From: a virus
Taxonomy: Duplodnaviria > Caudoviricetes
Strand: one strand, 5' to 3'
DNA: 64,000 bases
Virus record (IMG/VR): IMGVR_UViG_3300029288_000164
Location: 6,754 to 70,753 of that record
Shown here: positions 1,212 through 57,852 of the stretch, piece after piece
Layout of the letters: the number at the start of each line of letters is the position of its first letter
Position numbering within the stretch: the first letter of the stretch is position 1
Notes under the pieces: model-generated
The model's input: the letters and a program-made list of their open reading frames with translations, nothing else
The model's database searches: none
Told to the model about the DNA's origin: nothing
Translations under genes and position numbers: made by a program

Positions 1212-2153
1212 TTAAACCCAGGTCTTTAACGTTTTGATCATAAAATCTTCAATCATCTCAAGGTAAGGCTTCTCCGGTAGCGAAGTCTGCTCAAATGCTC
1301 GTCTTGCTTCCTCAACTAGCTCGCCTGCCCATTCAAGTATTTCTTCAACTGTGTATGTACCATGTTTGATGTTTACAATATCCAGGGCATAGGGCAGTGG
1401 ATAAACCAACTTCCCATACTTCATCAAATCAATTCCTTCTTTGAGCAGGTGTATGAGATTACTAGCAAATTTCGTGTCAAAGCCATACTTCAGGAACAGT
1501 TCTTTACGACTAGTAGCCTTAGAAAGACGGTCTTCAATCATTCTCCTGGCCTTCTTCACATACACACTAGGCTCAAGATGTAGATCACCAATAAGGATAT
1601 GGTGACCCTTTTCTCCATCAAACTTCAAGCAATAGGAATCATTCTTGTATTCTCCAAGTACGGAATGATCATCCTTGTCAGCCAAGAAAACTAGAGCATC
1701 TTCCAATGCATGATAATTTTCTGGCTTGATTCGCATCTTATGGCGTTGTGCGTCAGCATACGCAACAAATCGATGATGTGCTGCCTTACTGGGAAATAGA
1801 TGCGCCTTGCTTAGAAGAGCTTTTCCAATGTCTGATTGGAAAATAATGTTCTCAGGATTGGCGAACAATAGATGCAAAATGTTAGGATTGTTCTGTGTTG
1901 CTAACTTAATGAACTTCCGGAACTCGTAGAAAGTGCAATCAACAGCATCAGCAGTATTTCTACCGGTTTCGTCCTTATCCTTAACATTCATTTCAACGAC
2001 TTCGCAATTAGCAAAGCCATAAAGCATCTGTGAAGTTGGCAAGAATATGCCAATCATGTCCAGATCACTTTCGGGGGTGTTAGTTCCGAAAAGATGGGAA
2101 CCACTGCGAATTTTTAGGATTAACCTATCTTCTGCAATTTCTTGGTAGTTCAT
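1212..2153 (-). CDS. DNA polymerase beta-like nucleotidyltransferase, RlaP (RNA-repair-associated) family
   Basis: GSHLFGTNTPESDLD (GS...DxD) motif, NPNILHLL, and a C-terminal ASNLIHLL helix typical of this family. Confidence 0.85.
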   Translation of the reverse strand: MNYQEIAEDRLILKIRSGSHLFGTNTPESDLDMIGIFLPTSQMLYGFANCEVVEMNVKDKDETGRNTADAVDCTFYEFRKFIKLATQNNPNILHLLFANPENIIFQSDIGKALLSKAHLFPSKAAHHRFVAYADAQRHKMRIKPENYHALEDALVFLADKDDHSVLGEYKNDSYCLKFDGEKGHHILIGDLHLEPSVYVKKARRMIEDRLSKATSRKELFLKYGFDTKFASNLIHLLKEGIDLMKYGKLVYPLPYALDIVNIKHGTYTVEEILEWAGELVEEARRAFEQTSLPEKPYLEMIEDFMIKTLKTWV

Positions 2154-2444: not shown

Positions 2445-2891
2445 TTACTCAACACCACCATCAGAGGGGTATACATCAACAAGTGTTACAACTGTAGGTG
2501 TAGTTTTTGGATCTTCGGCCTCGACAACAGGGGCAGCTATTTCTGGACCCTGATTACACCAAGTTTCAAATTCGCTAGATTTGAGTTTGACAAGAACAGC
2601 CATAGAACTTGCGGCGGCGGCTAGAACCCCCGTTGAAATACCAAAACCCCATTGTATTTGGTTATCCTTATCCTTGTCGCCCGTATTGATGCCTGCTGTT
2701 GTAACGCCCCCAGCACCCGCTAGGCCCGTGGCAAAAGCTATGCCCCATGAGAGGGCGTCCCGTTGGTCAAGTAGCCTCTGGCAGCGCTCTGTGCTCCAGG
2801 AATGAGTAAAACCTTTGGCATCTGTTACTGGGTGCCTTGCTGAAGCTGTTGAGCAACCCATTAGGAAAATTGCAAAAATGAAATATCGCAT
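2445..2891 (-). CDS. Putative lipoprotein / membrane protein
   Basis: MRYFIFAIFLMGC is a signal peptide II with lipobox; two further hydrophobic Gly/Ala segments. Start revised from 3038 to ATG 2891. Confidence 0.65.
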   Translation of the reverse strand: MRYFIFAIFLMGCSTASARHPVTDAKGFTHSWSTERCQRLLDQRDALSWGIAFATGLAGAGGVTTAGINTGDKDKDNQIQWGFGISTGVLAAAASSMAVLVKLKSSEFETWCNQGPEIAAPVVEAEDPKTTPTVVTLVDVYPSDGGVE

Positions 2892-2892
2892 A

Positions 2893-3258
2893 TTACTTCG
2901 CCTTCCTCTTCTTTGCTGCCTTTTTTGCTGTATTCTTTTTGATTTCCTTTTTCTCTTCTTCTGTAGCGTAAGGAAAGTCCGCAGCAACAGATACTTCAGT
3001 GTGGGTTTCTGTTCCAGGATTATTTTCTTCACCTTCACAGCATGTCCAAGTTCCTACACACATACTTGAAAATTCTTCGGCTTGCTGTTTCTCATATTCT
3101 TCTAGCTTTGAGCGCAGGAAGCTAGTAATTACATACATAACCCCTTGATCAATTTCATCTTTTGGCCAGAGCAAAGTTTCTAGAACATCTAGAATACGCT
3201 GAATTTCATGTGGATAGATTCTCATTGGTTGAATAATTGCCATGTAATTTACATTCAT
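2893..3258 (-). CDS. Hypothetical protein with Lys/Ala-rich tail
   Basis: GAGGT RBS before ATG 3258; C-terminus KKNTAKKAAKKRKAK. Confidence 0.6.
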   Translation of the reverse strand: MNVNYMAIIQPMRIYPHEIQRILDVLETLLWPKDEIDQGVMYVITSFLRSKLEEYEKQQAEEFSSMCVGTWTCCEGEENNPGTETHTEVSVAADFPYATEEEKKEIKKNTAKKAAKKRKAK

Positions 3259-3728
3259 CTTGACCTCTTTCTCAGTTCTGTTTTCAAAATCCTTACGCAA
3301 TCTATCGCGTCATTTTCTTGAAATCCTATCGCGTGCTCTGGCCGAACCCACCTATTTTGATGAGGACTTATATCAGTGTCATCATCCACTATAACATACG
3401 ATTCTATTTCTGTTTGATCCATTAACCATGTCGAAATTTCCTGTCCCCTGGTTAAATATAGAAATTCACCAGTTTCCGTATAGTCAACAGTTTTATCAAA
3501 AATCCTTTCCGAACAAGGCAACCCACATTCCTCAAGATGTTTTCTAAGTTCTTTAATACTTTGCCCAATTCTCCAAGTAGATGAAATTACTATCCTTGCA
3601 TCGGGCACAGATTCAAAAATACTTTCGAAATATCTTACGCAATCCGAGTTAAGTTGATTTTGATGAAATGATCTTGGAATAGGCGCAAGAACACCATCGA
3701 TATCCAAAAAAATTACTTTCATACACAA
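3255..3728 (-). CDS. HAD-family phosphatase, Swiss-Army-Knife RNA-repair type
   Basis: KVIFLDIDGVL, IVISSTWR, RGQEI and YVIVDDD match the HAD_SAK-type motifs. Confidence 0.85.
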   Translation of the reverse strand: MCMKVIFLDIDGVLAPIPRSFHQNQLNSDCVRYFESIFESVPDARIVISSTWRIGQSIKELRKHLEECGLPCSERIFDKTVDYTETGEFLYLTRGQEISTWLMDQTEIESYVIVDDDTDISPHQNRWVRPEHAIGFQENDAIDCVRILKTELRKRSR

Positions 3729-4843: not shown

Positions 4844-5722
4844 ATGGCAGAAACACTAGTGAAGGTAACTGGATCAACCTCAAGCGTTGTATCTCTCGCA
4901 AGTGGGTACAGGATTTCTGGGCAGTCTACAGTATATATTCCCATTAGCAAGGTACAGTTTGATGCCGCTCTTTGTGCGGATCTAGCTACCCATATTACAC
5001 ACGGGCACATTACTGTTGCCATTAACGGGGTAGCACAAACAGCTTCGGATATGACGAACCTTGTTGGTAGTCCAATTCCTTCTGAAACCAAAGAACATAC
5101 GGACTACCAAGAGTCAATTCTTAGTAGATTTGACAACTCGGCTGCTTTACCGGTTTCTCCCTCTGATGGGGACAGGCGTTGGGCGCTTTCGACCGCATTA
5201 GGCTGGACCGCCAATCGCATCTACGTATATTCTGCCGCAACTACTTCTTGGGAGGAAGTTGTTCCGACAATTGGTACACAAATTTACGTGGAAAATGAGC
5301 TTATGCTTTATCTCTGGAATGGTACTTCGCTCAACAGTTTCGCAGAGTCCACCCAAATTCGGTGTCGCATTACTGCCATAGATTTGAAAGCTTTGGCCGC
5401 TTACACGGGCGTCATCAATGGTATTTCTACTGACAGATTCGTCCCAACAAATCTAATCTTCCGGGTTACAGCAGTTGGTGGTGCCGCACTTAACGGAAAT
5501 TGTTCCGTAACATGTGGTATCGGCGTAGGAACCACAGAAATTTTGCCGATCACACAGCTCACTGGTCTAATTGGGTTGAACACTTCCTTCAGTATTCCAA
5601 TTGCTGGCCTCGTAAATACCGCTATTTTGGCGAACGCAACTTTGCACTGTTCAGTAACAACGGCGGATACTTCGGCCGGTACTGGGACTGGCGAGCTTTG
5701 GATTTTTGGATACTCAATCTAG
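4844..5722 (+). CDS. Virion-like protein with DUF2793-like segment and shared C-terminal domain (paralog 1 of 3)
   Basis: GDRRWALS...GWTANRIYVY...WEEVVP..G..IYVENE..LYLWNG resembles DUF2793; the C-terminal GTTEILPITQLTGL...ANATLH is shared with the next two genes. Confidence 0.65.
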   Translation: MAETLVKVTGSTSSVVSLASGYRISGQSTVYIPISKVQFDAALCADLATHITHGHITVAINGVAQTASDMTNLVGSPIPSETKEHTDYQESILSRFDNSAALPVSPSDGDRRWALSTALGWTANRIYVYSAATTSWEEVVPTIGTQIYVENELMLYLWNGTSLNSFAESTQIRCRITAIDLKALAAYTGVINGISTDRFVPTNLIFRVTAVGGAALNGNCSVTCGIGVGTTEILPITQLTGLIGLNTSFSIPIAGLVNTAILANATLHCSVTTADTSAGTGTGELWIFGYSI

Positions 5723-5768: not shown

Positions 5769-6626
5769 ATGTCATTCAGAATCAGTCCGACAGTCGTAAT
5801 TACTGGCGCACAAGCCACTGCAAACACAGATCATATTACAGCAAGTGGTGCAGCACACTCTTTGGTTAAGGATTCTACTGTTTCCTCAACCCACCTAAAT
5901 GTCAGTTTTGTAACTGGCGCACTCACCCAAGTAGATGCTGCACTTACTGGTGACGTGGCTAAGAAGTTCAAGCCTGAACGAGTACTTGTTACTTGTTCAG
6001 ATATTGACATTCCAGCATGGCTTGAAGGCGGGGTTGCTGCAACTACAGTAATTGCAACATGGAATGCGGTAACTGCGGCAGCGGTAGGCGAATTTGGTAT
6101 TACCATTAATGGTGTTGCACAAGACATTACGGGTTTGGATTTCGCTGCTTGTGCTGACATGGATGATGTCGCTGCTGTTATTGAAGCCGGTCTTGTTGCT
6201 GCTTTCGGTGCCGCCATTACTTGCACATGGAATACAAATCATTTCCGCATTACTTCTGCTGATACCAACCCTGCTACGTCATTAATTACGGTTACTCGCG
6301 CCGTAGCTGCTCCTGCTGCTACAGACATCAGCGGTGTTGGTGCTACCACATTCATGGATGGCGAAGTTGGTGTAGGTATTCCTCATCTTCCCCCAACTGG
6401 TTTGGCCGCTACTTTAACCGTAGGAACAACCCACGCAGGAACGGAAATTTTACCGGCAACCGTACTTACAGGTCTAATTGGTGAGGGCATGACTTTTGAA
6501 GTTGGTCTTACCGGCCTGTTCCCAAGTATTGCCGGGAATGCAACCCTTCATGCAACGGCCGTAGTTGGAGATGGGGTAGCGCTGGCGTATTCCGCACATG
6601 TAGTTGTAGAAGGAACACAAGCATAA
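5769..6626 (+). CDS. Virion-like protein carrying an inserted DUF3383-like sheath accessory module (paralog 2 of 3)
   Basis: Colinear with 6660..7136 except for a ~129-aa insert similar to an insert in tail sheath 1. Confidence 0.7.
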   Translation: MSFRISPTVVITGAQATANTDHITASGAAHSLVKDSTVSSTHLNVSFVTGALTQVDAALTGDVAKKFKPERVLVTCSDIDIPAWLEGGVAATTVIATWNAVTAAAVGEFGITINGVAQDITGLDFAACADMDDVAAVIEAGLVAAFGAAITCTWNTNHFRITSADTNPATSLITVTRAVAAPAATDISGVGATTFMDGEVGVGIPHLPPTGLAATLTVGTTHAGTEILPATVLTGLIGEGMTFEVGLTGLFPSIAGNATLHATAVVGDGVALAYSAHVVVEGTQA

Positions 6627-6659
6627 TCGCGTCTAATTCTGACGCAGGGAGAAAATAAA

Positions 6660-7136
6660 ATGGCCATCAGACTCAGCCCGACAGACGTATTAACCGCAAC
6701 AGCCTATAGTGCTTCTGTAACGCACAACACAGCAACGGGGGCCTCGCACTCACTTGTACTTGACAACACGGTCAAGGCAACTTGTGTCGGCGTAGATCTT
6801 CTAAGTGGCGTAAGCGAGGTTAGCGCCGCACTTAGTGGCAGTGCTTCCAAGAAGTTTAAGCCAAACCGCGCTATCATCACATGCACGGCGCAGACCGGAG
6901 CCGGGGCGACCGGGGACAGCCACGTACAAATCGGGACGGCAACAGCGGGAGCCCAGGTTATGGCCAGCACCCATCTAACCGCACTTCAAACGGTTGGCCA
7001 GTGCTTCATTGTAGACCTCACGGGCGTTTTTGCAAATATCGCAGGAAATGCCACCCTGTTTGCTCAGTGCGTAACTCCAGACGGTACCGGCACCACAATG
7101 ACGGCTGATGTAGTTATTGAAGGTACAGAAGTCTAA
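6660..7136 (+). CDS. Small beta-rich virion-like protein (paralog 3 of 3)
   Basis: SPT...HSLV.D.TV...KKFKP.R...IAGNATL is shared with 5769..6626. Confidence 0.7.
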   Translation: MAIRLSPTDVLTATAYSASVTHNTATGASHSLVLDNTVKATCVGVDLLSGVSEVSAALSGSASKKFKPNRAIITCTAQTGAGATGDSHVQIGTATAGAQVMASTHLTALQTVGQCFIVDLTGVFANIAGNATLFAQCVTPDGTGTTMTADVVIEGTEV

Positions 7137-7260
7137 TTTTTCACTTCCCTAGCTGATTTACCAAGTGTAAAAACAGTTCCGAATTCGTCCAGATAATTTC
7201 TTGGCGAATTCAGCCCTTAAACGTTTAACTTTCCTACAAAGCTCGTATTATACTTATGTT

Positions 7261-8427
7261 ATGGCAGAAGACAAACCACAGCCACAAAAATACCACTACG
7301 TCTACGAAATCACCAATATATACAACGGTATGCGTTATTTTGGTGCAAGAACAAGCAAAAATCTACCCCGAAACGATACAAAATATATGGGGTCATCCAA
7401 GTCATTAAAAAAAGCGATAAAAGAGGAAGGACTTTCTTGTTTCAGTAAATTAGTTTTGGCGGTATTTCCCACAAGAGAGAAATCACTTGCATACGAAGTT
7501 TTCTTGCATAAACGCTTCAATGTAGATAAAGATCCAGCCTTTTATAATAAAGCAAGACAAACATCAACAGGGTTTTCTTTTTCTGCTTCCGGTCCAGATC
7601 ATCCAAAGTATGGGACACACCCAAAAGGAAGAAAACTTACAGAAGAAGAAAAAGAGAAACTACGCCTATCGGCCATAAAAGCTAATACTGGGAAAAAGCG
7701 TTCCGAAGAGTCTAAACAAAAACAGAGTAACACCACAAAAGGGACACATATGGGGGAAAACCATCATATGTATGGAAAACACCCTAAAGAAAAGACACGA
7801 AAAAAGCTTAGTGAAAAAAGAAGAAAGAAAATAAGACCCCTTGAATTTCGAAAAAATATGAGCAAAGCCAGGTCTGGTGAAAAAAATCCACAATATGGCA
7901 AACCTCTTTCGCAAGAACATAGAGATAAAATTGGAAAAAGTCTTCTTACCAGAGATACATATATTTATGTTACCCCTATTGGAGAATTCTCAACTGCTTC
8001 TTCCGCAGCAAAAGCCTTACAGTGCTTTAGAGGAACGATTATTAAGAGGTGCAAACAGGAATTTGAAGGATATTCTTTAAAACTCGCCAGAAACATGAAA
8101 AAAGAAGAATTCGAAAATTTATATGAAAAAGGATTTTCAATTTTGGAAATTGAGAAAATAATAAATGTTCGCAATAATGTTTTATATAGGTGGAAGCATG
8201 AAAAAGAAGGAACCACACCTAATGGAGTAGGAATAAAACTAACGCCCACAAAAGTTTTAGAAATTAGATATTTGTATGATATTGGTGCTCCTATGGGAGT
8301 ATTAGAAAAAGAGTTTGATTTGGGAAGAACACAAATATACAGAATAGGAAAACGTCAAAACTGGACCCACATTCCCGAAGAACTCTCACCCATAGATCCC
8401 TCCTGGCAAAAAAACTACTGTTGTTAA
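7261..8427 (+). CDS. Free-standing GIY-YIG homing endonuclease with NUMOD3 repeats and C-terminal HTHs
   Basis: HYVYEITN..NGMRYFGAR, conserved E and YN residues, repeats such as HHMYGKHPKEKTRKKLSE and NPQYGKPLSQEHRDKIG. ATG 7261 preferred to TTG 7201. Confidence 0.88.
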   Translation: MAEDKPQPQKYHYVYEITNIYNGMRYFGARTSKNLPRNDTKYMGSSKSLKKAIKEEGLSCFSKLVLAVFPTREKSLAYEVFLHKRFNVDKDPAFYNKARQTSTGFSFSASGPDHPKYGTHPKGRKLTEEEKEKLRLSAIKANTGKKRSEESKQKQSNTTKGTHMGENHHMYGKHPKEKTRKKLSEKRRKKIRPLEFRKNMSKARSGEKNPQYGKPLSQEHRDKIGKSLLTRDTYIYVTPIGEFSTASSAAKALQCFRGTIIKRCKQEFEGYSLKLARNMKKEEFENLYEKGFSILEIEKIINVRNNVLYRWKHEKEGTTPNGVGIKLTPTKVLEIRYLYDIGAPMGVLEKEFDLGRTQIYRIGKRQNWTHIPEELSPIDPSWQKNYCC

Positions 8428-9049: not shown

Positions 9050-9525
9050 ATGGCAAACGGCGACAAAGTTCTAGACATTTCTGAACGTGCTGCAACATTA
9101 AAAAAGCTGGGTTTAGTACCGCAGTTACGTTACTAATTCTCCTACTTTCTTCCCCCGGCTTTTATTCTTTCTTCCTTGACTCTACAAGCGAAGAAGCACG
9201 AATTGAAGCAATAAAGGCTCAAGCGGCATCCGATATTTCATACACATTACTAAAGGCAAAATCAGAAAGTCTTGAAGGACAAGTAGCAACTCTTCGTGGT
9301 GATGTTAAAGAGTTATCAACCTTCATTCGGGAAATGGCCATACAACAAGCCCAAGTCAACGCAGGACAGCGTTTAGGTGGAAGACGGGTCACAGCAGCCA
9401 ATGCCCCAGAACCGCCCTTAATGCCTGTTGTAGAGTCTTTAAAGAAGTCAGCGCCTCTTCCTGCCGATTTGGACCCATTAGTTCAGCTTCAAGTTAAAGA
9501 GACTTTGGAAGAGCAGCCTCTTTAA
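9050..9525 (+). CDS. Single-pass membrane / coiled-coil protein requiring a -1 frameshift at 9100-9106
   Basis: GGAGGA RBS and ATG 9050 give only 28 aa; the -1 frame is open from 9085 to 9525 and encodes a TM helix plus coiled coil; the junction reads TTA AAA AAG. Confidence 0.6.
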
Positions 9526-10592
9526 TGTTCTAGCAAGTCGCAAACGTATTCCAACCGTGATTCCCTCAACAATTCCTTAACCGTCTTCTCAGGATTTTTC
9601 CTCAATTGAAAAAGGATTCCTGAATATGGCAAATGTTTGACAGCTAATGCGTAATCTTTTTGAGCAATAATGGGTGAATATTTAGCGAATACATTAGCAA
9701 TCTCGTTGACAAGATTTTCGTACTTTTCCTTAACCTCTTCGTACTCTTTGGTGAATTCGGGAAAGTAGGAAAGAAATTCCGATCCTGCATTAAGTTGTAC
9801 TAACTCGATTATTCGTTTATGGCTGAACCCATCTTTCATATGTGCGATTGCCAAATACTGCGGTGACTTAATCTTTATACGATTGAACTCTTGATCTACA
9901 ACAACTACCCCTTCATTTGCTAATGGATTGAAATCTTTGACAAAATCAACAATCTCATCAAAAGTTTGCAGAGGGTAGGATTTTGCACATTCCCAGCCAT
10001 ACTCTTTAGCAATAGGTTCGGGAATCAGTTCGCAAAGTGTTTGGAGATCTCTTGCCCCATGTAGGACAATTCTTGACTCATTGTACACACAGACTATCCG
10101 ATTCAGCGGAGTAATCATTTCAAACATATAGCAAATATTGGTATTTGTTGGTAATTTATATCCAAGCTTTTCCCAGGTATCCCAAAATAACTTTGCGAAT
10201 GTTATTCCCGAATTATTTACCTCACCGGCAGCATCGGGTTTGCCGGAAGAGGAAATTTGCCAAGCATTATCATAGTAATGAAGAGTCATCAAACTCCCAT
10301 CTAATTTTTCCATTACCTTGGCAGTTGACCAATCAATTTCAGCAGCAAGGCCTTCGTGGGCATTCCAGAATTTTAGATAGGGGAACGATACAATATTCCA
10401 ATTCTTGCTTTCATCAAGAATAAGTCCACGGCATTCTTGAGAAATTCGTTCATTCATTGGGGTATCGATCCAATACTTAAAGAGAATAAGGTTGGGGTAC
10501 TTTCCATGACGGGTACATTTTATATTGTACTCTGATGTTAAGTCTTCCGGAGTCTTACCCGACCGAAGATATTTTTGGATAGCGAGTTCCAC
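9522..10592 (-). CDS. ATP-dependent RNA ligase, T4 Rnl1-like
   Basis: ECRGLIL...PYLKFWN, motif I EKLDGS, FEMI, EGVVV, IKIK. Confidence 0.92.
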   Translation of the reverse strand: MELAIQKYLRSGKTPEDLTSEYNIKCTRHGKYPNLILFKYWIDTPMNERISQECRGLILDESKNWNIVSFPYLKFWNAHEGLAAEIDWSTAKVMEKLDGSLMTLHYYDNAWQISSSGKPDAAGEVNNSGITFAKLFWDTWEKLGYKLPTNTNICYMFEMITPLNRIVCVYNESRIVLHGARDLQTLCELIPEPIAKEYGWECAKSYPLQTFDEIVDFVKDFNPLANEGVVVVDQEFNRIKIKSPQYLAIAHMKDGFSHKRIIELVQLNAGSEFLSYFPEFTKEYEEVKEKYENLVNEIANVFAKYSPIIAQKDYALAVKHLPYSGILFQLRKNPEKTVKELLRESRLEYVCDLLEH

Positions 10593-10594
10593 AG

Positions 10595-11800
10595 TTATCC
10601 CTTAATGGAAGCAATCGGATGAAGAGTCTTAATAATTCGAACAAGATCCTTTTGGTTGTTCATAACGACTTCGATATCCTTGTAAGCTCCGGGGGCCTCA
10701 TCCAGCTTGTCCTTATTTGTCATTCCATGAACAATACCTTCCATCTTTTTCTTCTCGCCCTCAAGGTCCAGTGTTCTAATAGCTTCCTTCCTGCCCATTC
10801 GTCTACCTGCCCCGTGTGAGCAAGACATGAAACTTTCTGGATTTCCTAGACCCTGAACAACATAGCTAGCTGTTCCCATAGATCCTGGGATAAGACCTGT
10901 AGTCTTCTCTGTTGCCTTGGTCGCACCCTTTCGATGAACCATTACGTTCTTTCCATAGTGATTTTCCATCTCTGCGTAATTGTGATGAATGTTTACCTGT
11001 TCTCCTAGTTCAATTCCAGAAAAACCATCATATTTTTTAACCATGTTCAAAACAACAGAAATACATTCTTGCATCATTCTTTGCCTATTTTCAGCGGCAA
11101 AATCTAGGGCCAAATTCATCCAATCCAAGTACTCCAAACCTTCCTTAGAGTCTGTAGGAAGGAAGCTAAGTCCCAAAGACGAATCAACAGAAGAATACCA
11201 ATACTCATTCAAGTTTTTAGCAATCTTTGTAAAATAATCACAAACCTTTTTGCCAAAGTTTCTGCTTCCTGAGTGCAAAAGAATACAAAGGTTATTTGTA
11301 TCGTCTTTACATAGCTCTACGAAGTGATTACCGCCGCCGAGTGTTCCGACCTGGAAATACCCACGCTCAATCTCGTTTAGAAGATCTCCTGAAAGATGTC
11401 CGTACTTTTCCAATGCAATATCCAAAGCAGCGCAGGGTTGCTTTGTTTTATGGTGCTCAAAACCGACTGGAACATTTCTCTTGATGTTTCCAAGAATACC
11501 TTTGATGAGTGGCCCAACAGTTCCAGTATCCTTGTACAAAAGATCAACAGGAATGTTTGTTGGTTGAAAAGCAACGCCACATCCAATATCGACGCCAACG
11601 GCACAAGGTAACACAACCCCCTCAGTTGCCACAATACTCCCGATTGGCACACCGAAACCAAAATGGGCATCTGGGGCAAGAACGACCCACTTATAAACAA
11701 AAGGAAGATTGGCCATATTCTTTGCCTGCTCTAATGCAGAATCTTCCAAATCGTCTAGCCACATCTTGATCGGCACTCGTTCTGTATTTACTACTTTCAT
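10595..11800 (-). CDS. rtcB: RtcB RNA 2',3'-cyclic phosphate / 5'-OH ligase
   Basis: PDAH, GVDIGCG, GTLGGGNHF, HSGSR, HHN, HRKGA, PGSMG, SHGAGR and DEAPGAYK are all present. Confidence 0.97.
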   Translation of the reverse strand: MKVVNTERVPIKMWLDDLEDSALEQAKNMANLPFVYKWVVLAPDAHFGFGVPIGSIVATEGVVLPCAVGVDIGCGVAFQPTNIPVDLLYKDTGTVGPLIKGILGNIKRNVPVGFEHHKTKQPCAALDIALEKYGHLSGDLLNEIERGYFQVGTLGGGNHFVELCKDDTNNLCILLHSGSRNFGKKVCDYFTKIAKNLNEYWYSSVDSSLGLSFLPTDSKEGLEYLDWMNLALDFAAENRQRMMQECISVVLNMVKKYDGFSGIELGEQVNIHHNYAEMENHYGKNVMVHRKGATKATEKTTGLIPGSMGTASYVVQGLGNPESFMSCSHGAGRRMGRKEAIRTLDLEGEKKKMEGIVHGMTNKDKLDEAPGAYKDIEVVMNNQKDLVRIIKTLHPIASIKG

Positions 11801-11853
11801 TTTTACAAACCTTTCGTATAATGTGATATACTAGTTCTCAAAAGGAGCAACCA

Positions 11854-12108
11854 ATGAAATATCTACTTCCTATTCTTTTTTTAATGGTTCTTTCTTGCCA
11901 GGAAGAATGTAAGTCGGGTGAGGACCGTTGTCAAGCTGATAACGTTCAGATTTGTAATTCGGAAGGCGATTGGTACACCGTTTTGGATTGTACCACTGTC
12001 ACGCCGGATTTGTGGGAATGCTGTGTAACTGGTGTAGAATATGAGACTATTGTGATGGCCGACTGCGTTCCGCTTGACAGTTGCGAAATTGATGGAGGTG
12101 TAGAATGA
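11854..12108 (+). CDS. Cys-rich lipoprotein
   Basis: MKYLLPILFLMVLSC lipobox; 8 Cys in the mature part; AAGGAG RBS. Confidence 0.7.
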   Translation: MKYLLPILFLMVLSCQEECKSGEDRCQADNVQICNSEGDWYTVLDCTTVTPDLWECCVTGVEYETIVMADCVPLDSCEIDGGVE

Positions 12109-12671
12109 ATCGTGCAAAGATTAGAGTGCATACAGAAGAATTGATAAGCATTAAAAACAAACTGGAAAAACGCTTCAACGTAAAAATTACCTCAAATAAA
12201 AATGAAGGAGAAATCGAAGCTGTTGCATCAATTCTAGATTTAATCGGTGTAAAGAACAAGGAAGAATTTCTGAAGGAAGTTGCTATTACCATTTATCGGC
12301 ATATCTATTTACCGTTTACTGTAGGAGAGCTGTCCGTAGATCCGCTAAAACAGCTCGAAATTATTGCCCATGAATTAGAACACGTTTTACAGTGGGAAAA
12401 AGACCCTCTGGCTTTTGGGATTAATTATCTGACTAAGCCAGAAAAACGTGCCGAAATGGAAACCAAAGCGCTCGGGGCAAATATGGAATGGGTTTGGAGA
12501 ACAACTGGCAAACTTTATGACGTGAAGTTGCTGAGTCAACATTTACGCTGGTACCGGATTTCCAGTAAGGACATAAAAGTCTCCGAAAAACATTTAGCAA
12601 TCCTGGCTAATATTCTCAAGCAAGGCGGGAATTACAGCATACCTGTTGAAGCCATTATGCAATTGATCTAG
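12105..12671 (+). CDS. Putative zincin metallopeptidase-domain protein
   Basis: IIAHELEHVLQW (HExxH) with a downstream AE; GGAGGT RBS. Confidence 0.6.
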   Translation: MNRAKIRVHTEELISIKNKLEKRFNVKITSNKNEGEIEAVASILDLIGVKNKEEFLKEVAITIYRHIYLPFTVGELSVDPLKQLEIIAHELEHVLQWEKDPLAFGINYLTKPEKRAEMETKALGANMEWVWRTTGKLYDVKLLSQHLRWYRISSKDIKVSEKHLAILANILKQGGNYSIPVEAIMQLI

Positions 12672-12714
12672 TCCTTCCTTAGCAAAAAATTTCAAAATTC
12701 TTTTGTCCTGCCCC

Positions 12715-12742
12715 TTGACACCGGGGAAATTGTGCTTATATT
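12715..12742 (+). promoter_or_regulatory. Sigma70-type promoter TTGACA-N16-TATATT
   Basis: Hexamers read directly; 5' flank CCTGCCCC is identical to the promoter at 2402-2429. Confidence 0.75.
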
Positions 12743-12764
12743 GCTAGGTAGGAGGACAGAGAAA

Positions 12765-13436
12765 ATGACAACGATTCACCACGCAAGTTTGAACCCCCGT
12801 TATTCGATGTTTGGTGTTTCTCTGTGCTCCATTAAGGAAGGCCAGAATACGACCACGGATAAGGAGAAGGTAACTTGCCTTCGTTGTGCCAAGATCCTGG
12901 GAATCACCCCGGCAGCGAAGCCCGAGTCGAAGAACGTTACTGGAACCTGCGCGTGCTGCTTCTCTAACCAGAAGACGCAAACCAAGACGGCCAGTTCCTC
13001 TGGGACGATGTTTCACCACGGTTATCAGAGGCCAGGTAACGGCTACATCGAAGGAGCTTGCCCCGGCCATGACTTCCTTCCTTACGAGAAGTCTTGTGAA
13101 GGCACCAAGTACATGCTGGAGCGTGCCAAGTCCGCTCTGGAGAACACGATTGCCCACATTGAGCACCTGAAGACGACGGATAAGGTTACTACGTATGTCG
13201 TCACAGGCCATGAAGGTGTTTTTGGTAAGAGGGTTGAGAAGGGCGTTTTCGTCACGCTGGTCAAGGGTGAGGCTCCGGTTACTGTTGAGCGGCCCCGGTA
13301 CTGCCCCTCTTCGATTACCCTGACTTTTGAGGAAGTTCGCGACGAGCAACTTTCTGAACAGGAAACTCGCAAGAGCCACATCGAATATGACATCAAGTTT
13401 TACGAGAAGAAAATTGCCGAGTGGAAGGAGAACTAA
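12765..13436 (+). CDS. Zn-binding hypothetical phage protein
   Basis: VTCLRC, GTCACC, HHGYQRPG..GAC motifs; GGAGG RBS; GC-richer codon use than neighbours. Confidence 0.7.
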   Translation: MTTIHHASLNPRYSMFGVSLCSIKEGQNTTTDKEKVTCLRCAKILGITPAAKPESKNVTGTCACCFSNQKTQTKTASSSGTMFHHGYQRPGNGYIEGACPGHDFLPYEKSCEGTKYMLERAKSALENTIAHIEHLKTTDKVTTYVVTGHEGVFGKRVEKGVFVTLVKGEAPVTVERPRYCPSSITLTFEEVRDEQLSEQETRKSHIEYDIKFYEKKIAEWKEN

Positions 13437-13437
13437 A

Positions 13438-13725
13438 ATGTCCCAAATTCTAAGAGCACATGAACTACGAGCCAAGTTGGAGGAAGGAATCAACCACAGG
13501 AGCGCCCAACGTAATGGGGGTTGCCTATCCCATGAGAATTTCCAGTGGGACATGGAGACGTGGAGGCAGCGTTTCCGGGTAGAGGGCCTTTACTCCGCTC
13601 TTTCCATGATTGTTGAACCTCTTCTTGCTGTTGCTGATATGTCTGCCGATGAGGACACAAACAAGATGCTCACCGCCCTTTATGCCAAAATTCAGGATGA
13701 TCTTCTGAGTGGGAAGATTGGGTAA
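13438..13725 (+). CDS. Hypothetical protein
   Basis: AAGGAG RBS and ATG at 13438. Confidence 0.6.
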   Translation: MSQILRAHELRAKLEEGINHRSAQRNGGCLSHENFQWDMETWRQRFRVEGLYSALSMIVEPLLAVADMSADEDTNKMLTALYAKIQDDLLSGKIG

Positions 13726-13736
13726 GGAGAACTAAA

Positions 13737-13967
13737 ATGGGAACCGCACTAGATTTCGTAATGGATATGGATGAAGCAACATGTCACCAGATCATCAAGG
13801 AGTACCACCAGTTTGAAGAAGAGGGTTCTATTGGTGACTGTATTCTTCGTGAAAAAGGAGAGGAGTTCGCAACATCTCTTGGTGCCCCAAACGGTCCCTA
13901 CATCATCACATGGATGGGCGAACTTTACAAAAATTGTTTGCTGAGATTTTACAGAAAGAATTACTAA
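13737..13967 (+). CDS. Hypothetical protein
   Basis: AAGGAG RBS; 76 aa. Confidence 0.6.
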   Translation: MGTALDFVMDMDEATCHQIIKEYHQFEEEGSIGDCILREKGEEFATSLGAPNGPYIITWMGELYKNCLLRFYRKNY

Positions 13968-13974
13968 TAGTTAC

Positions 13975-14047
13975 GGACCTGTAGCTCAAGTAGAAGAGTC
14001 CCGAACTTTTAATTCGGTGGTTCCGCGTGCAAGTCGCGGCAGGTTCA
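13975..14047 (+). tRNA. tRNA-Lys, anticodon UUU, CCA not encoded
   Basis: Acceptor GGACCTG/CAGGTTC, D stem GCTC/GAGT, anticodon arm CCGAA-CT TTT AA-TTCGG, T arm CCGCG-TGCAAGT-CGCGG, discriminator A followed by CAA. Confidence 0.9.
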
Positions 14048-19223: not shown

Positions 19224-19964
19224 TTACCTCTTGCTGGAAAACTCAATGTTGATTTCTGTTGGCTGTGCTGATTCATGTGCTAGAGAAGGTGCCGAGTAAT
19301 AGACAGTGCTTTGCTGTGTACCTTCTCGATTGAAGGACACGACTCTTTCCTTGTGCTCATGGCCACAAAGAAAATAATCAATGTACCCTTCACAAGCACG
19401 TAGCAATTCTTCCGCGTCTTTCAATTCCAATGCCCAGCGTTCTTCGAAAGGCGTGTGGTGCATACAGACTAGCGAAATCTTTTTGTCCTTCTTGCATTGA
19501 AGACCGAATTTCTTTATTGCTCTGCGATTCCACCAACCAACATTGCCTTTTGCAAAATCAAATGGGGTATATGTTTTTAGATTTGAATCAATAGGAAGAA
19601 TTCGCAAATCATAAAATTCATTGCGTGGGAAGTTCAGTAATGACGCAAAAACTTTGAAGCGTTTTACACATTCTTTATTGTAGAACAAACCACTCGCACC
19701 CAGGTCATGATTTCCGGGGACTACGATAATCCTGTTGGTAAATGGTGTAAGCAGCTTCAGCGCATTAGCATATTGGACTTCGGAGCCATCGTCTGTAATA
19801 TCTCCGGTACAAACTATAAAATCAACAGGGCCAAGCTTCTGAGACAATGTGTAGAGCTTGGACTCTACCTGATAATTGTGCTTCATGTCTGAGCGTACAT
19901 GCAAATCGCTAATATGGAAAATTTTCATGGTATGTTCTCCTATCTTTCCGATAGGGTAATTCAA
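19224..19964 (-). CDS. Calcineurin-like metallophosphoesterase (CpdA/Icc-like)
   Basis: HISDLH, GDITD, PGNHD, HH, GHEH. Confidence 0.9.
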   Translation of the reverse strand: MNYPIGKIGEHTMKIFHISDLHVRSDMKHNYQVESKLYTLSQKLGPVDFIVCTGDITDDGSEVQYANALKLLTPFTNRIIVVPGNHDLGASGLFYNKECVKRFKVFASLLNFPRNEFYDLRILPIDSNLKTYTPFDFAKGNVGWWNRRAIKKFGLQCKKDKKISLVCMHHTPFEERWALELKDAEELLRACEGYIDYFLCGHEHKERVVSFNREGTQQSTVYYSAPSLAHESAQPTEINIEFSSKR

Positions 19965-19979: not shown

Positions 19980-20723
19980 TTAACGTTCCCTCTTTGCTTT
20001 GAATGGGAAGGAAGTTTGACGAGGATCTATAACTTCTGGTTTTGGCTCTGTATCTTCTTCTTCAAACTCATCTTCTTCTACCAAAGCAAAGCCTAACTCT
20101 TTTGCGGCTTCTTGAATAGAACTTTCTTCAACCCACTGTCCCCCAGTTTCATTGTCGTGCTCACCAAAAGCCTCCTGGTTATGTTTCCATAACCACGTAA
20201 ATACTTGCTTTGCCCAATCTTCCGGAGCTTCATCGCTAACAACACTATAACCCTCAGATTCAATATTTTCTATTGTGGCATCATACTCTGTCTGACTTAT
20301 TTCATCATCATTCAAAACAGGATAACCCGACAGTGAAGCTGCACTATCCTTCAAAATCGAACCCGCAGGAGTTAGCTTACCTGCATTATCAAAAACACGC
20401 ACAGCATACTCACCGCCTTGAACATGAACAAAATTTTCCTCTCCTGTATTTTTCAATTCCCTCATAATACTTTTCATATTTGACATAGATATATAATCTG
20501 TATATTTTTTCTCAACCCCCTCAATCATAACCCACTGGTCCATTTCTTCGGGGGCAATGTCTGTGTAGCTATTCAGTTGCAGGGGCACATTTTCTGGAGA
20601 ATAATAAAGGCCAACATCCGAAAGGTCTTGACGAAATTCCTTGATTTGTGAACTCAGATCAGTATTTTCAAGAATTTGTGCCATTCTTTCGAACGCTTTA
20701 TCTTGCAAACCCAATTTTATCAT
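19980..20723 (-). CDS. Acidic hypothetical protein with DKAFERMA motif
   Basis: GGAGG RBS before MIKLGL; D/E-rich. Confidence 0.65.
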   Translation of the reverse strand: MIKLGLQDKAFERMAQILENTDLSSQIKEFRQDLSDVGLYYSPENVPLQLNSYTDIAPEEMDQWVMIEGVEKKYTDYISMSNMKSIMRELKNTGEENFVHVQGGEYAVRVFDNAGKLTPAGSILKDSAASLSGYPVLNDDEISQTEYDATIENIESEGYSVVSDEAPEDWAKQVFTWLWKHNQEAFGEHDNETGGQWVEESSIQEAAKELGFALVEEDEFEEEDTEPKPEVIDPRQTSFPFKAKRER

Positions 20724-20776
20724 TTTTTCCTCCAAAATGGTTACCCAAGTACTTTACGACAAAACTTGTTGGTTTG

Positions 20777-21949
20777 CTAAAGCGGGGAGAAAGATTTTCG
20801 AACGAAATCAATTACCGCACTAAACTTGCGGTTTGTCACTAGCCTAGGAGGGGTATCCAATTGCTTGGTTTCTCTCCCAATAGCCGCAACAATAGGCCAA
20901 TTGATAGTGGCCCTGCGTGCGATGTTCACCGCCCCAACATGATCAGCATGGTCGGTGTAACCGCACGACTTGCAACAGAACTCCGCTTGGCTTCGCCTGT
21001 TCCCCTTATTGATATAGTCACACTTCGGGCAAGTTATGCTGGTGTTATAGGCGGAAACAATACCTACGGGAACACCAGATAACCGCGCCTTGTATTCAAT
21101 AAAGGTGCGAAGCTGATAAAAACCCCAATTTCTTTTGCTTGCTCTTTGGTCTTTTCTAACCGTTCCCCGGTTGTTAATCCCCTTGAGGTCTTCAAGAGCG
21201 ATCCCACGACCGGTGCCTTTGGCCTTAGAAACAAGAGTCTTTGAAATGGTGTGGTTTGTATCGGCTCTAAAACGTTTTTCCTTTCCCGACAGCTTCTTGA
21301 GTTTCTTTTTAGACGATTTGGTTCCTACAGACTTAAGTTCAAATCTGAGTCGAGACTGTTTTTTCCGAACTTTCTCAACCTTGTCCCCGCTGTGCTTGTC
21401 CCCATCCGAGTCAACAGCGAGATTCCTAATGCCAAGATCAACTCCCATCCATTCCTTGGGGGTTATCTGGGCTTCTTCGGGGACTTCGACGGTAACGTAA
21501 AGGTACCACTTGCCTTTTTTGAGAACAAGATCCGACTGGCCCCTTTTTCCCTCAAGACGGGAGCGAAAATAATCTCCGACTACAAAAGGCATTTTTATTC
21601 TTCCGTCGAGAGTAAGGACAGAAATTTGATCAATAGCCTTAAAGCTATACATCCAATGGTCATATGCAATCGCACTATGTTTTTTAAATTTTGGCTGAAC
21701 TTTTTTGTTTCGTTTATATGCAGTACTAACTTTTCCTATAGCACGTATGGTCATTTCGGAAGAAAGGCCAAATTTTTCCCGCATAATTCGATAATAAGAA
21801 TGTTGTAGTGTTATTTTATTCGCAGTTTTGTCTTTAAATGCTTGTAGAGCTAACCAGTTACACGCCTCTGTTATTTTCTCCATCGTAGCTAGAAGCAAAC
21901 GCGCTTGTTCTACCGTAGGACATAATTTTGTTTTTATCACCAGTATCAT
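20777..21949 (-). mobile_element. tnpB: IS200/IS605-family TnpB RNA-guided endonuclease (copy 1), no tnpA in window
   Basis: N-terminal HTH, GVDLG, IALEDL, CPKC...CKSC ribbon, HADHVGAVNI; 9-bp hairpin at 21950-21974 and a CCGCA/TGCGG hairpin at about 20815-20831. Confidence 0.92.
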
Positions 21950-26697: not shown

Positions 26698-27141
26698 TTA
26701 GTAATTATGTAGGATTTTCAACGCTTTTTCGTACCTGTGGCGAATGTCCTGCTCTTCTGGTGGAAGTGAGTCAATTCTACGCAGGTTGTCATTGAGATCT
26801 GCAATTTTCAGTTCTATTGCAATTTCATTTTTACTATCACGAATTTTCTCAATGAATTCGCTATAAGTTGGGCGATTTTCCGTACCAGGAGCAGGACGAG
26901 AAAGCAAGGAAACAGCTTCAACAACAGTAGGTGAAAAACCTTCACTGAGAAGTTGTTCAGTACTCACCCCACAATCCTCGATAACGTCATGGAGAAGTCC
27001 TGCCTGTGCGTATTCCTCCCCATATTCAATAACGCTGTAAGCTACTCGAATAGGGTGAAAAATGTAAGGATTCCCACTCCTGTCTTTTTGACCAGCATGT
27101 TTGGTGATTGCATAAATCATGGTTTGTTCTAAAGTTTTCAT
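26698..27141 (-). CDS. HD-domain hydrolase, RelA/SpoT-Mesh1-like
   Basis: HAGQKDRSGNPYIFHP, GLLHDVIED, KIADLNDN. Confidence 0.9.
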   Translation of the reverse strand: MKTLEQTMIYAITKHAGQKDRSGNPYIFHPIRVAYSVIEYGEEYAQAGLLHDVIEDCGVSTEQLLSEGFSPTVVEAVSLLSRPAPGTENRPTYSEFIEKIRDSKNEIAIELKIADLNDNLRRIDSLPPEEQDIRHRYEKALKILHNY

Positions 27142-36107: not shown

Positions 36108-36316
36108 GTAGTTTATTGGTTAAGGTTTGCCGGTGGTTGGTAAGGTGCGGGGTTTGGTGTAGTACATAAAGGAACAATAGCGAAATGTGGGAAAAGACTA
36201 AGCGGAGTTTAGACGAATCGATGCCACGGCTTGTGACTTCCAACAGGGATTATCAACAGCGGGAGTTGATGAAGTCTGTTCTCCCTAAAGGTTGTAATTT
36301 GATGGAAGGCGGTAAC

Positions 36317-53203: not shown

Positions 53204-54412
53204 TTGATGGCTAAATTATACAGAACTTGTAAGGTAAAGTTGGGGAAATCTCCTAAACAGGAGAAAAAGCTCAAAACTACTTTGGAGTTATTACGGCAGT
53301 TATATAATGCTGCTTTGCAACAGCGGCGCGAAGCTTGGGTGAAACAGCACGTATCCTTAACGGAATATGATCAACATGCAGAGCTGACTAAGGTGAGAGC
53401 AGACGATATAGAGTTTAGAAACATTCCCGTTGAGACTGCGAGACTTACATCATTGCATCGACTTGCCTTAGCTTTTCAGAAGTTTTTTAATAGATTGAAA
53501 CGTGGGGAGAAGCCGGGGTATCCTAGATATAAAGGGGTTGATCGGTTTAATACTTTATTTTATGGTCGAACTGGCTGGAAGATAGATGGAAAAAAACTTA
53601 TTTTGGTTAATGGTAAAGACCCTATAGTGCTAAGAATGAGAAATAGTATTTATTTAGCGGGTAAAATAGTTGGGTTTAAGTTAGTAGAGCGGGCAGGGCG
53701 TTGGTGGGCGCATTTTCAAATTGAGATGGGGGATATTCCGGAAAAAGGGGAAGCAAAAAATAGTGTTGGTATTGATGTTGGTATTAAAACTTTTGCAACA
53801 TTGTCAGATGGATCTGAGGTTGAGCATCCCCATTTTCTAGTTAACGCTTCTGCCAAACTTAAAGAGGGGCAGAGAAATTTGTCTAGAAAGACAAAAGGCT
53901 CAAATAATAGGAAGAAGGCACAGGAACGTCTCGCTCGATTAAATGAGAATATAGTAAATCAACGAAAGAACTTTATAAATCAGGTTGTTTCGGATTTAGT
54001 AAAAACGTATGACGGTTTTGTAGTGGAGGCGCTGGATATAAGAAGGATGATGTCTACGAATAGCGCTCCCTCAGGTTTGGGTAAGTTTGGTCTTCCCGGT
54101 TTAAAGAGGGGGATTATAGATTCGTCTTGGGGTGCATTTGCTCTTCATCTGGTCAGTAAAGCGGAAGAAGCTGGCTGTCCGGTTGTTTGCGTAAATCCTA
54201 GAGGAACTTCACAGATGTGTTCCGGATGCGGGACAACAGTAAAGAAAGATCTTGGTTCTAGAATGCATGATTGCCCTGTTTGTGGTTTGTTGCTAGACAG
54301 GGATTTAAATGCGGCCAAGAATATTTTTGCTTTAGGAAAAAACAACCTGGGGCACAGGTTGACGACTGATAGTACAGCTTTTAGCTGTGCCGTTGGCGCG
54401 GAGGCTTTTTGA
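53204..54412 (+). mobile_element. tnpB: IS200/IS605-family TnpB (copy 2)
   Basis: LYNAALQQRR, GIDVG, VVEAL, CSGC...CPVC, DRDLNAAKNI. Confidence 0.93.
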
Positions 54413-56646: not shown

Positions 56647-57852
56647 ATGTTTAGGACAAGTAAAGTTAAGTTAGGGCGATCTTATAAGCAGGAAGCTTTA
56701 CTTCTTTCTGTGCTGGAATCTTGTAGGCAGCTTTACAATGCAGCCTTACAGCAAAGGCGGGAGGCTTATAGTAGACAGAAAGTTTCTGTTTCTCTTTATG
56801 AACAGTATGGGGATTTAACTGACCTTCGTGCGGATGATCCAGAGTTTAAACTTTTGCCGAGTGAGATGACGAGATTAACCTCTCTCCGCAGGTTGGATCT
56901 TGCCTATGTTAGTTTCTACAGAAGATCAAAAGCAGGAAAAAACCCAGGTTTTCCGAGATTTAAGGGTAAGGGTAGATTTGACACGCTGATTTCTGGTCTT
57001 GGGGGCTGGAAGATTGAAGGAAAGAAGTTAATTATCAAAGCAGGTCCAACACCTATTGTTCTGACTATGAGGAACAAGATTCACAGGGACGGGGAAATCA
57101 AAGGTCTTCGAATCGTCAAGCGCCAAAATCGCTGGTGGGCGGATTTTCGGATTGATGTTGGTCCTGCTCCTGCTGTCAAAGCTCCTAGGAATGAGGTTGG
57201 GATCGATGTTGGTTTGAGGACCTTTGCTAAAATGTCCGATGGGAAAGATATAGATCATCCCCATTTTCTAAAGAAAGTTCTTCCCCAGGTAAAAGAAGCT
57301 CAAAGAGATTTAAGTTCCAAGAAAAAAGGATCAAACAATAGGAAAAAGTCCAAGCAAGTTCTTTCGCGCATCAGCGCGAAAGTTGCTAATAAGCGCAAAG
57401 ATTTTATATTTCAAACTGTTGCTGCTCTAGCTAAAGAATATGATGGTTTTAAAGTTGAGAAATTGAACATTGTTGGGATGCTGGCTTCAACACGTCCAGC
57501 CCCAGAAGGGATGACAGAGAAAAACACCCGTTCTATGAGACGAAACATAATGGATGCTTCCTGGGGGATGTTTATAGCTCAACTGAAAAATAAAGCGGAA
57601 GAAGCTGGTTTTCCGGTTGTGCTAGTTAACCCAAAGGGCACAAGTCAGCACTGTTCGGATTGCGGTACCCTAGTGCGTAAGGCACTAAATATTCGCATTC
57701 ATGAGTGTCCTGTGTGTGGCTTGGTTATGGACAGAGATGAGAATTCAGCCAGGAACATCTTACAAGTTGAAAACGACCTGGGGTGCAGGTCGGTGCCTAA
57801 AGATACAGGCACGGAGGTTACATGTCAAGATGAGAACCACACCCGATGGTGA
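56647..57852 (+). mobile_element. tnpB: IS200/IS605-family TnpB (copy 3)
   Basis: LYNAALQQRR, GIDVG, KVEKL, CSDC...CPVC, DRDENSARNI. Confidence 0.93.

Follow-up and report, generated by a model that had tools for sequence, protein, structure and literature searches.

In bacteriophage T4, tRNA-Lys cut by PrrC is healed by the polynucleotide kinase Pnk and sealed by the RNA ligase Rnl1. PMC12409363 credits this repair to Amitsur et al. 1987, and T4 also has a member of the RlaP family, NrdC.11 (10.64898/2025.12.29.696909). Here we describe a candidate RNA-repair locus from a stretch of 64,000 nucleotides (hereafter, the window), which spans bases 6754-70753 of one 70,753-bp IMG/VR viral contig (IMGVR_UViG_3300029288_000164), and in which the gene for an RtcB-type RNA ligase directly precedes that for an Rnl1-type RNA ligase, with a gene for tRNA-Lys(UUU) nearby on the opposite strand.

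The two ligase types act on different ends: RtcB joins 3'-phosphate or 2',3'-cyclic phosphate ends to 5'-OH ends, while Rnl1-type ligases need a 3'-OH and a 5'-phosphate (PMC7824862). As outlined in the survey of Iyer et al. 2021 (PMC7824862), phages hold mixed sets of RtcB, Rnl1 and Rnl2 together with RlaP and standalone SAK-type HAD proteins; the sets are read there as counter-defence, and the SAK-HAD proteins are proposed to be 3'-phosphatases. RlaP, according to a preprint, adds one to two nucleotides to an RNA 3'-OH, yielding a product that is unusable by RtcB but usable by 5'-phosphate ligases (10.64898/2025.12.29.696909). The Toprim tRNases AriB and P2-OLD are described as leaving 3'-OH/5'-phosphate ends, and a single OLD nick as being sealed by T4 Rnl1 or Rnl2 without end healing (PMC12409363, PMC12445682). 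AriB cleaves tRNA-Lys(UUU), the tRNA-Lys of phage T5 rescues infection, and an A41-to-C change inhibits cleavage, as reported in PMC12409363.

Against this background, the locus appears to be built of two divergent units set back to back, a leftward, coupled RtcB-Rnl1 bicistron and a rightward, promoter-driven tRNA-Lys(UUU) gene. We propose for it an accessory role in RNA repair and tRNA supply, covering both end chemistries without a kinase and likely serving in counter-defence, a reading towards which we lean without holding it firmly.

The RtcB and Rnl1 ligase genes

The 87 open reading frames (ORFs) of the full contig were compared with Pfam and PHROGs. A first-pass annotation of this DNA, made from the sequence alone, had described the two ligase genes as adjacent and co-oriented; both indeed have Pfam matches and lie 2 bp apart on the (-) strand, in the following arrangement.

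10595..11800, (-) strand: RtcB-type RNA ligase, first gene of the bicistron (PF01139, 344 bits, E 1.9e-102)
9522..10592, (-) strand: Rnl1-type (T4 RnlA family) ATP-dependent RNA ligase, second gene, with a GTG start 2 bp past the RtcB stop
11906..11934, (-) strand: weak candidate for a sigma-70-like promoter before RtcB (TTGACA-17-TACATT, 10 of 12 matches)

Alignment to the P. horikoshii RtcB showed that the active-site positions D-x-x-C, N-H, H-S-G, H-R-K-G and C-H-G-A-G-R are kept. Residues D71, C74, N158, H159, H176, H289 and H329 (window numbering), which align with P. horikoshii sites, are invariant in 24 homologs; among these positions are the Asp, Cys and His residues that we take to bind metal and the His that we take to accept GMP.

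The second gene scores 60.1 bits with PF09511 (cut-off 28.3) and matches phrog_562 (1.1e-43), and reaches 54.6 bits with the NCBIfam equivalog TIGR02308, under the 242.25-bit cut-off of that model; it is therefore a member of the Rnl1 family and not an equivalog or orthologue of T4 RnlA. Its sequence match to T4 Rnl1 is weak (phmmer E 6.6e-08). Its motifs K-x-D-G, E-G-x-V and K-I-K align to the T4 Rnl1 chains 2c5u, 9do4 and 5tt6, and in 25 homologs residues K96, D98, G99, E227, G228, K240 and K242 do not vary. In an AlphaFold2 model (predicted local distance difference test score 90.5), residues 244-353 form an all-helical C-terminal region. The top three Foldseek matches of this model in the PDB are T4 Rnl1 (368-380 aligned columns, full length, E down to 1.6e-16); the ligase domains of archaeal Rnl3 and fungal Trl1 rank below them. 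The TM-score against T4 Rnl1 is just 0.48-0.52, with a high root-mean-square deviation, probably owing to the orientation of the domains in the model.

The label of phrog_562, 'RNA ligase and tail fiber protein attachment catalyst', together with tail-type genes (DUF3383, DUF2793) located 3-5 kb to the left, raises the question of whether the Rnl1-type protein is mainly a tail-fibre attachment factor, by the second, non-catalytic role of T4 gp63, and its RtcB neighbour incidental. We consider this highly improbable, because the ligase motifs are invariant in the 25 homologs, cellular cyanobacterial ones paired with the bifunctional kinase-phosphatase Pnkp included, and because the apparent coupling of the gene is to a second RNA ligase gene rather than to a tail gene.

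The junction between the two genes has the form AAGGGrTAr-CT-GTG (AAGGG, the RtcB stop, two bases and the GTG start) in the window and in two related metagenome loci, L084 and L089. That it is kept in three phages suggests that RtcB and Rnl1 are translationally coupled. A complex prediction for the two proteins (score 0.00, mark 0.32) speaks neither for nor against binding. The promoter candidate upstream of RtcB is rated weak because the region holds no more promoter-like sites in total than expected from shuffled sequence.

Occurrence of the ligase pair in relatives and elsewhere

Both L084 and L089 have RtcB directly before Rnl1, in the same orientation. The L084 RtcB is 81% identical to that of the window. 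In L089, most proteins of which are 91-99% identical to their counterparts here, RtcB is 94% and Rnl1 64% identical; the differences between the two Rnl1 proteins are spread over their whole length, leaving Rnl1 far more diverged than RtcB, and this unequal divergence is evidently mosaicism. A free-standing GIY-YIG/NUMOD3 homing endonuclease gene (7201-8427, (+) strand) lies 1.1 kb from Rnl1, at the place where synteny with L089 breaks, and may contribute to the mosaicism around Rnl1.

Among close relatives with a visible upstream flank, the pair is present in two of three (L084 and L089, not L085). Two more relatives probably hold both ligases on one contig, judging from matching longest-contig figures: the figure is 172,260 bp both for an RtcB homolog (84%) and for an Rnl1 homolog (60%), and 19,967 bp for both members of a second such pair. 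Fragmentary contigs from four other DNA runs leave parts of Rnl1 (9783-10426) uncovered at at least 85% likeness in runs X3-X5, which proves nothing, and one contig of run X3 skips an RtcB-sized 1200 bp, a weak hint.

Neighbourhood surveys covered 80 loci in each of four sets (Rnl1-centred viral, RtcB-centred viral, metagenome and bacterial genome loci), with flanks of up to 10 kb. RtcB was found at none of the 80 Rnl1-centred IMG/VR loci. A search of the whole records behind 48 of these loci detected RtcB in one, ~24 kb from Rnl1, and RtcB was absent from all 11 of these records that are rated at least 90% complete. The 80 RtcB-centred viral loci yielded an Rnl1-type gene in one case (27% identity, 2.8 kb off), RlaP in four, and neither Pnkp nor SAK-HAD in any. 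Adjacency of RtcB and Rnl1 was thus seen in none of these 160 other viral loci and, within the 80 metagenome loci, just in L084 and L089, with a further locus (L132) having RtcB ~4 kb away; the 80 bacterial genome loci were devoid of RtcB. Five Rnl1-bearing phage records were checked individually, and BcepSauron, the sole carrier of RtcB among them, has the two genes 153 kb apart. A megablast search of the locus against cultured phages gave no match, and a single-protein search of IMG/VR for close Rnl1 relatives found none. Adjacency of the two genes is rare outside this lineage.

The cellular relatives of Rnl1 are overwhelmingly cyanobacterial (43-52% identity), and the few named relatives of RtcB (~53%) are Clostridia-type, a combination that indicates no single host. 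With a cyanobacterial-type Rnl1 and a Clostridia-type RtcB, the pair was therefore put together within the phage lineage.

A linked tRNA-Lys(UUU) gene

The second unit of the locus runs rightward and comprises the following features.

12715..12742, (+) strand: sigma-70-like promoter at the head of the tRNA-Lys cassette (TTGACA-16-TATATT, 11 of 12 matches)
12765-13436, 13438-13725 and 13737-13967, (+) strand: three small ORFs between promoter and tRNA, of unknown function and missing in L089
13975..14048, (+) strand: tRNA-Lys(UUU) (ARAGORN; Rfam, 53.7 bits), with no encoded CCA and with unusual D and T loops

ARAGORN and Rfam agree on this tRNA as the single one of the window, and it is also the single one of the contig. 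It lies on the strand opposite to the ligases, 2.2 kb from the RtcB start, as the first-pass annotation had placed it. The gene has no intron, its anticodon loop is the standard C-U-U-U-U-A-A, and its discriminator is A.

L089 carries the same unit in another form. On the minus strand of that locus, the identical 28-nt promoter string is followed by 50 nt and then by a split tRNA gene (L089:7521-7798), made up of a 34-nt 5' half, 204 nt and a 40-nt 3' half. The 204-nt insert matches the full Rfam group I intron model (RF00028, positions 1-253) with 48.9 bits (gathering score 50) and E 2.3e-11; it sits in the anticodon, between tRNA positions 34 and 35, and satisfies the U/G rule, with U closing the 5' exon and G closing the intron. 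Its removal in silico left a 74-nt tRNA-Lys(ttt) that ARAGORN folds into a clean cloverleaf and that is identical to the window tRNA at 58 of 74 positions. As far as its sequence tells, the L089 tRNA-Lys is split by a group I intron, which is predicted to splice. Both default ARAGORN and Rfam at its gathering score miss this split tRNA, and ARAGORN in intron mode finds the arms with mis-set borders. Given the intron-split copy in L089, the idea that the tRNA belongs to a strain-specific 1.3-kb insert missing from that relative was rejected. The unit of promoter and tRNA-Lys thus stands beside the ligase operon also in L089, the one close relative with a readable interval; in L084 synteny stops before the tRNA interval. 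Cyanobacterial tRNA-Leu(UAA) has a group I intron in its anticodon loop, and Azoarcus tRNA-Ile reportedly carries one too. In our literature search, no phage tRNA-Lys gene with a group I intron was seen described, which is no proof that none exists.

Both copies of the tRNA share further peculiarities. Their T-loops read U-G-C-A-A-(G/A)-U, with G in place of the near-universal U55, and their D-loops are without the usual G-G pair, a deviation kept in both phages. As regards the cassette, ORF 12765-13436 is a member of a phage family of unknown function, and the same 16-nt string of ribosome-binding site, stop and start occurs at both ORF junctions (13425-13440 and 13724-13739); a contig of run X4 skips precisely the 299 bp between the two copies. 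Contigs from other runs have joints, with sides of 24-49 nt, that bypass the tRNA cassette wholly or partly; these are weak hints.

Positions 36-41 of the window tRNA read U-A-A-U-U-C, as against U-A-A-U-C|A at the E. coli AriB site, from which it differs at positions 40 and 41; the comparison is with the E. coli tRNA. This is at most suggestive of an escape from AriB-like cleavage via position 41.

The tRNA also bears on the possibility that the locus serves general RNA maintenance and translation supply instead of counter-defence, the ligases repairing host rRNA, mRNA or tRNA that stress has damaged or toxins have cut, and the tRNA-Lys supplementing AAA/AAG decoding. Both codons are heavily used (636 AAA and 580 AAG out of 19,410 codons), and both ligases have cellular homologs outside a phage context. 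We nonetheless deem this explanation distinctly unlikely, because the single tRNA carried is of a specificity that several defence nucleases target, because its anticodon stem departs from the E. coli AriB site at the two positions named above, and because published analyses, as represented in PMC7824862, read such phage sets as counter-defence.

Search for a polynucleotide kinase

The first-pass annotation had seen no polynucleotide kinase in the window and had proposed to look for Pnk in the rest of the genome. The observation extends to the whole 70,753-bp contig: Pfam and PHROGs assigned none of its 87 ORFs to such an enzyme, a Walker-A scan of its six frames gave the terminase as the sole in-gene match, and tblastn with cyanobacterial and viral Pnkp probes (E<=10) returned a best E of 0.24. 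Neither was a Pnkp found within 10 kb of the ligase pair in L084 or L089, and the T4-type arrangement, in which Pnk is encoded along with the ligase, was thus seen neither in the contig nor at these two loci. As the contig is ~40% complete (CheckV), the absence of a kinase applies to the contig and not to the genome. ORF 2445-3038 was considered as a hidden kinase and rejected as lipoprotein-like or unknown; other ORFs of unknown function were likewise rejected, as they have no Walker A motif.

Relatives of this Rnl1 often have a kinase at hand. At cyanobacterial Rnl1 loci, a Pnkp (AAA_33 + HAD_PNKP) follows ~160 bp downstream on the same strand in 68 of 80 cases, and tblastn detects Pnkp near members of the clade at 71 of 80 cyanobacterial, 28 of 80 metagenome and 11 of 80 viral loci. 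Here, the usual slot of Pnkp downstream of Rnl1 is taken by a small, unrelated, convergent ORF (9334-9525). A classic T4-type heal-and-seal pathway, with a Pnk or Pnkp gene in the 60% of the genome that the contig does not reach and with Rnl1 and RtcB redundant on the same cyclic phosphate/5'-OH breaks, would accord with these frequencies, with the incompleteness of the contig and with the presence of a candidate SAK-HAD 3'-phosphatase, an enzyme that is sensible mainly in a healing pathway. It accords less well with the lack of a kinase in 70.7 kb and within 10 kb of the pair in the two relatives, or with the occupied slot. We regard it as the main rival of our reading, less likely than not.

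RlaP, a SAK-type HAD phosphatase and possible accessory genes

Further candidates for parts in RNA repair are encoded on the same strand as the ligases.

1212..2153, (-) strand: RlaP-family Pol-beta nucleotidyltransferase (PF10127, 68.6 bits, cut-off 23; phrog_388, 3.1e-55)
3255..3728, (-) strand: standalone SAK-type HAD phosphatase, HAD_SAK_2 (PF18143, 93.8 bits, cut-off 27.5, profile positions 1-139 of 139)
19224..19964, (-) strand: calcineurin-like metallophosphoesterase (PF00149, 82.9 bits), with all metal-binding motifs present, 95% identical in L089
2..718 (full gene, contig 6485-7471), (-) strand: radical SAM enzyme (PF04055) of the RlaP operon, a possible accessory

The first two had been recognized in the first-pass annotation, and the tie it drew between their families and RNA ligases agrees with published phage RNA-repair surveys as represented in PMC7824862. 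The PF10127 match of RlaP spans profile positions 19-142 of 249, that of phrog_388 is full length, and the G-S...D-L-D motif is present. The HAD protein has motif I (D-I-D-G-V) near its N-terminus and is a candidate RNA 3'-phosphatase. PDB sequence searches with these two proteins gave no useful match. RlaP homologs (88% and 71%) share longest-contig figures (53,221 and 40,243 bp) with one Rnl1 and one RtcB homolog of the lineage, and on these matching figures RlaP probably travels with the ligases at the scale of the genome.

The metallophosphoesterase shows weak similarity to cyclic-nucleotide phosphodiesterases; it is possibly a cyclic-phosphate or 3'-phosphate esterase, and any link of it to the repair genes is speculative. 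A homolog of the radical SAM protein (51%, L277:12113-13093) is found in a tight RtcB operon; the 215-kb contig in question, from an unrelated phage, has an RlaP gene as well. Across 21 loci of its family, RtcB is a neighbour in three, the sole one to recur in more than two, and RtcB and/or RlaP lie within 8 kb in five; the protein may be a new RNA-repair-associated enzyme. Outside the window, the leftward string of genes to which radical SAM and RlaP belong also includes contig 5057-5524 ((-) strand), which matches phrog_652 (2.6e-39) and the protein of which weakly matches a NADAR/YbiA-type N-glycosidase (TIGR02464, E 9e-4).

The phage and other features of the contig

Pfam and PHROGs assign terminase, portal, protease, major head and sheath-like proteins to the contig. 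Among named viruses it is closest to the 197-kb 'Virus Rctr197k', which stems from a bioreactor enrichment; the major head proteins are 59% and the terminases 34% identical. Given the ~40% completeness and the size of this relative, the contig is part of a large uncultured tailed phage of roughly 175 kb.

The portal protein (36185-39142, (+) strand, 985 aa) has a LAGLIDADG domain (residues ~573-632) between two portal-like stretches, suggesting an intein or an inserted homing endonuclease. A TnpB (IS605 OrfB-type) gene and the adjoining ORF of 251 aa (19980-21949, (-) strand) are missing in L089, which has ~0.6 kb there compared with ~2 kb, and the region looks like a recent insertion; two further TnpB genes (53204-54412 and 56647-57852) lie amid structural genes. 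A standalone small HD domain protein (26698-27141, (-) strand) resembles the SpoT/RelA hydrolase domain (TIGR00691, 3.9e-21) and is a candidate alarmone hydrolase.

Discussion

Defences that cut tRNA use two incompatible end chemistries. If the reading that we favor, an accessory RNA-repair and tRNA-supply locus acting without a kinase, is true, one small operon answers both chemistries with matched ligases rather than with a single repair route. RtcB would directly join the 2',3'-cyclic phosphate or 3'-phosphate/5'-OH breaks made by metal-independent anticodon nucleases. Rnl1 would join the 3'-OH/5'-phosphate breaks made by metal-dependent (Toprim-type) tRNases, for which no kinase would be required, and might also accept 3'-OH ends after dephosphorylation by SAK-HAD and extension by RlaP. 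The phage tRNA-Lys(UUU) would provide a fresh, sequence-divergent copy able to replace or out-compete the host tRNA cut by defence nucleases. We infer the enzyme activities from the families to which the proteins belong; the substrates, the purpose of counter-defence and the independence from a kinase are parts of the proposal in the same sense.

The first-pass annotation had pictured a layered counter-defence in which the tRNA is replaced, sealed directly, or healed and then sealed. This picture holds in that all the parts are present with intact motifs, that the order of the ligase genes is conserved in relatives, and that the tRNA is kept in L089. Its 'heal then seal' layer is without a kinase, and its grouping of the genes is loosened by the RlaP/HAD pair lying in another operon and by a relative whose Rnl1 has no RtcB beside it. 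The suggestion that Rnl1 may act on other breaks has gained backing from the published work on Toprim tRNases cited above, as far as described there, in which 3'-OH/5'-phosphate ends are sealed by T4 Rnl1 without healing.

Several observations weigh against our reading. RlaP and HAD belong to a separate leftward operon 6-8 kb from the ligases (7.4 kb for RlaP), are parted from each other by an unrelated lipoprotein-like gene (2445-3038), have structural-type genes and a homing endonuclease gene between them and the ligases, and were not found within 10 kb of the L089 pair. Co-occurrence across related phages, which the first-pass annotation had made a test of its idea, is partial: beside L084 and L089, which have the pair, stands L085, the Rnl1 of which (65%) has no RtcB in 162 bp of unrelated AT-rich upstream sequence, so that the pair is not obligatory, and neither ligase was found in Virus Rctr197k, the search for the Rnl1 family being validated on five of five positives. 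Given the usual Pnkp of the clade, it is quite possible that the remaining 60% of the genome encodes a kinase, which would make a kinase-free reading unnecessary. With AAA accounting for 52% of the Lys codons, plain codon supply could explain the tRNA.

A more specific version of the proposal, which we find rather doubtful when taken as a whole, would have the two-ligase operon devoted to maintaining the supply of tRNA-Lys(UUU), independently of a kinase. RtcB would reseal the cuts of metal-independent anticodon nucleases and Rnl1 those of Toprim- or PIN-type (PARIS-like) nucleases; Rnl1 would in addition be the outlet for RlaP-rebuilt 3'-OH ends, solving the puzzle, raised in the RlaP preprint, of the end-incompatibility of RlaP and RtcB. 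In intron-bearing relatives, Rnl1 could also rescue 3'-OH/5'-phosphate tRNA halves from abortive splicing.

Phages with mixed sets of RtcB, Rnl1, RlaP and SAK-HAD are already known from the published surveys, as outlined at the outset. What is new here is a conserved and apparently coupled RtcB-Rnl1 bicistron, a member of this Rnl1 clade that lacks the customary Pnkp beside it, and a linked tRNA-Lys(UUU) gene behind its own promoter, which occurs both without an intron and with a probable group I intron. The locus offers a compact system in which to test whether an Rnl1-type ligase alone can reverse Toprim-type tRNA cuts in vivo, and bears on the question of which ligase takes the 3'-OH ends made by RlaP. 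As the split tRNA-Lys of L089 moreover shows, counts of phage tRNAs made with standard finders can come out too low.

Comparison with known systems

With the Pnk and Rnl1 system of T4, the locus shares a phage ligase of the Rnl1 family, a tRNA-Lys(UUU) at stake and an RlaP member; it differs in the lack of Pnk in the contig, in the RtcB directly upstream, in having its own tRNA-Lys and in the weak sequence match of the ligase. The phage tRNA-Lys(UUU) of T5, which reportedly neutralises PARIS/AriB, likewise has an anticodon stem that differs from the E. coli cleavage site, with C41 in both phages, whereas the window tRNA keeps U39 where T5 has A39, and is linked to ligases.

The closest gene set among phages is that of Burkholderia BcepSaruman and BcepSauron, described as encoding RtcB, Rnl1 and Rnl2, with which the contig shares RtcB and Rnl1, RlaP, SAK-HAD, and calcineurin-like and HD enzymes; unlike the widely spaced ligase genes of BcepSauron, those of the window form one bicistron. 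The Pseudomonas RtcB-RlaP-RtcA operons, as described, also bring together RtcB and RlaP, for which the same activities are predicted, in a single genome. Here, in contrast, RlaP lies in another operon, a 5'-phosphate ligase is present, and neither RtcA nor RtcR was found.

The cyanobacterial Rnl1-Pnkp pairs have a ligase of the same clade with the same conserved C-terminal region; unlike in the window, tblastn with the window proteins detected neither RtcB nor RlaP nor SAK-HAD within 10 kb at any of their 80 loci. The putative L089 intron, finally, resembles bacterial tRNA group I introns in its length of ~204 nt, in its placement behind position 34 of the anticodon loop and in following the U/G rule, and differs from them in residing in a phage tRNA-Lys(UUU).

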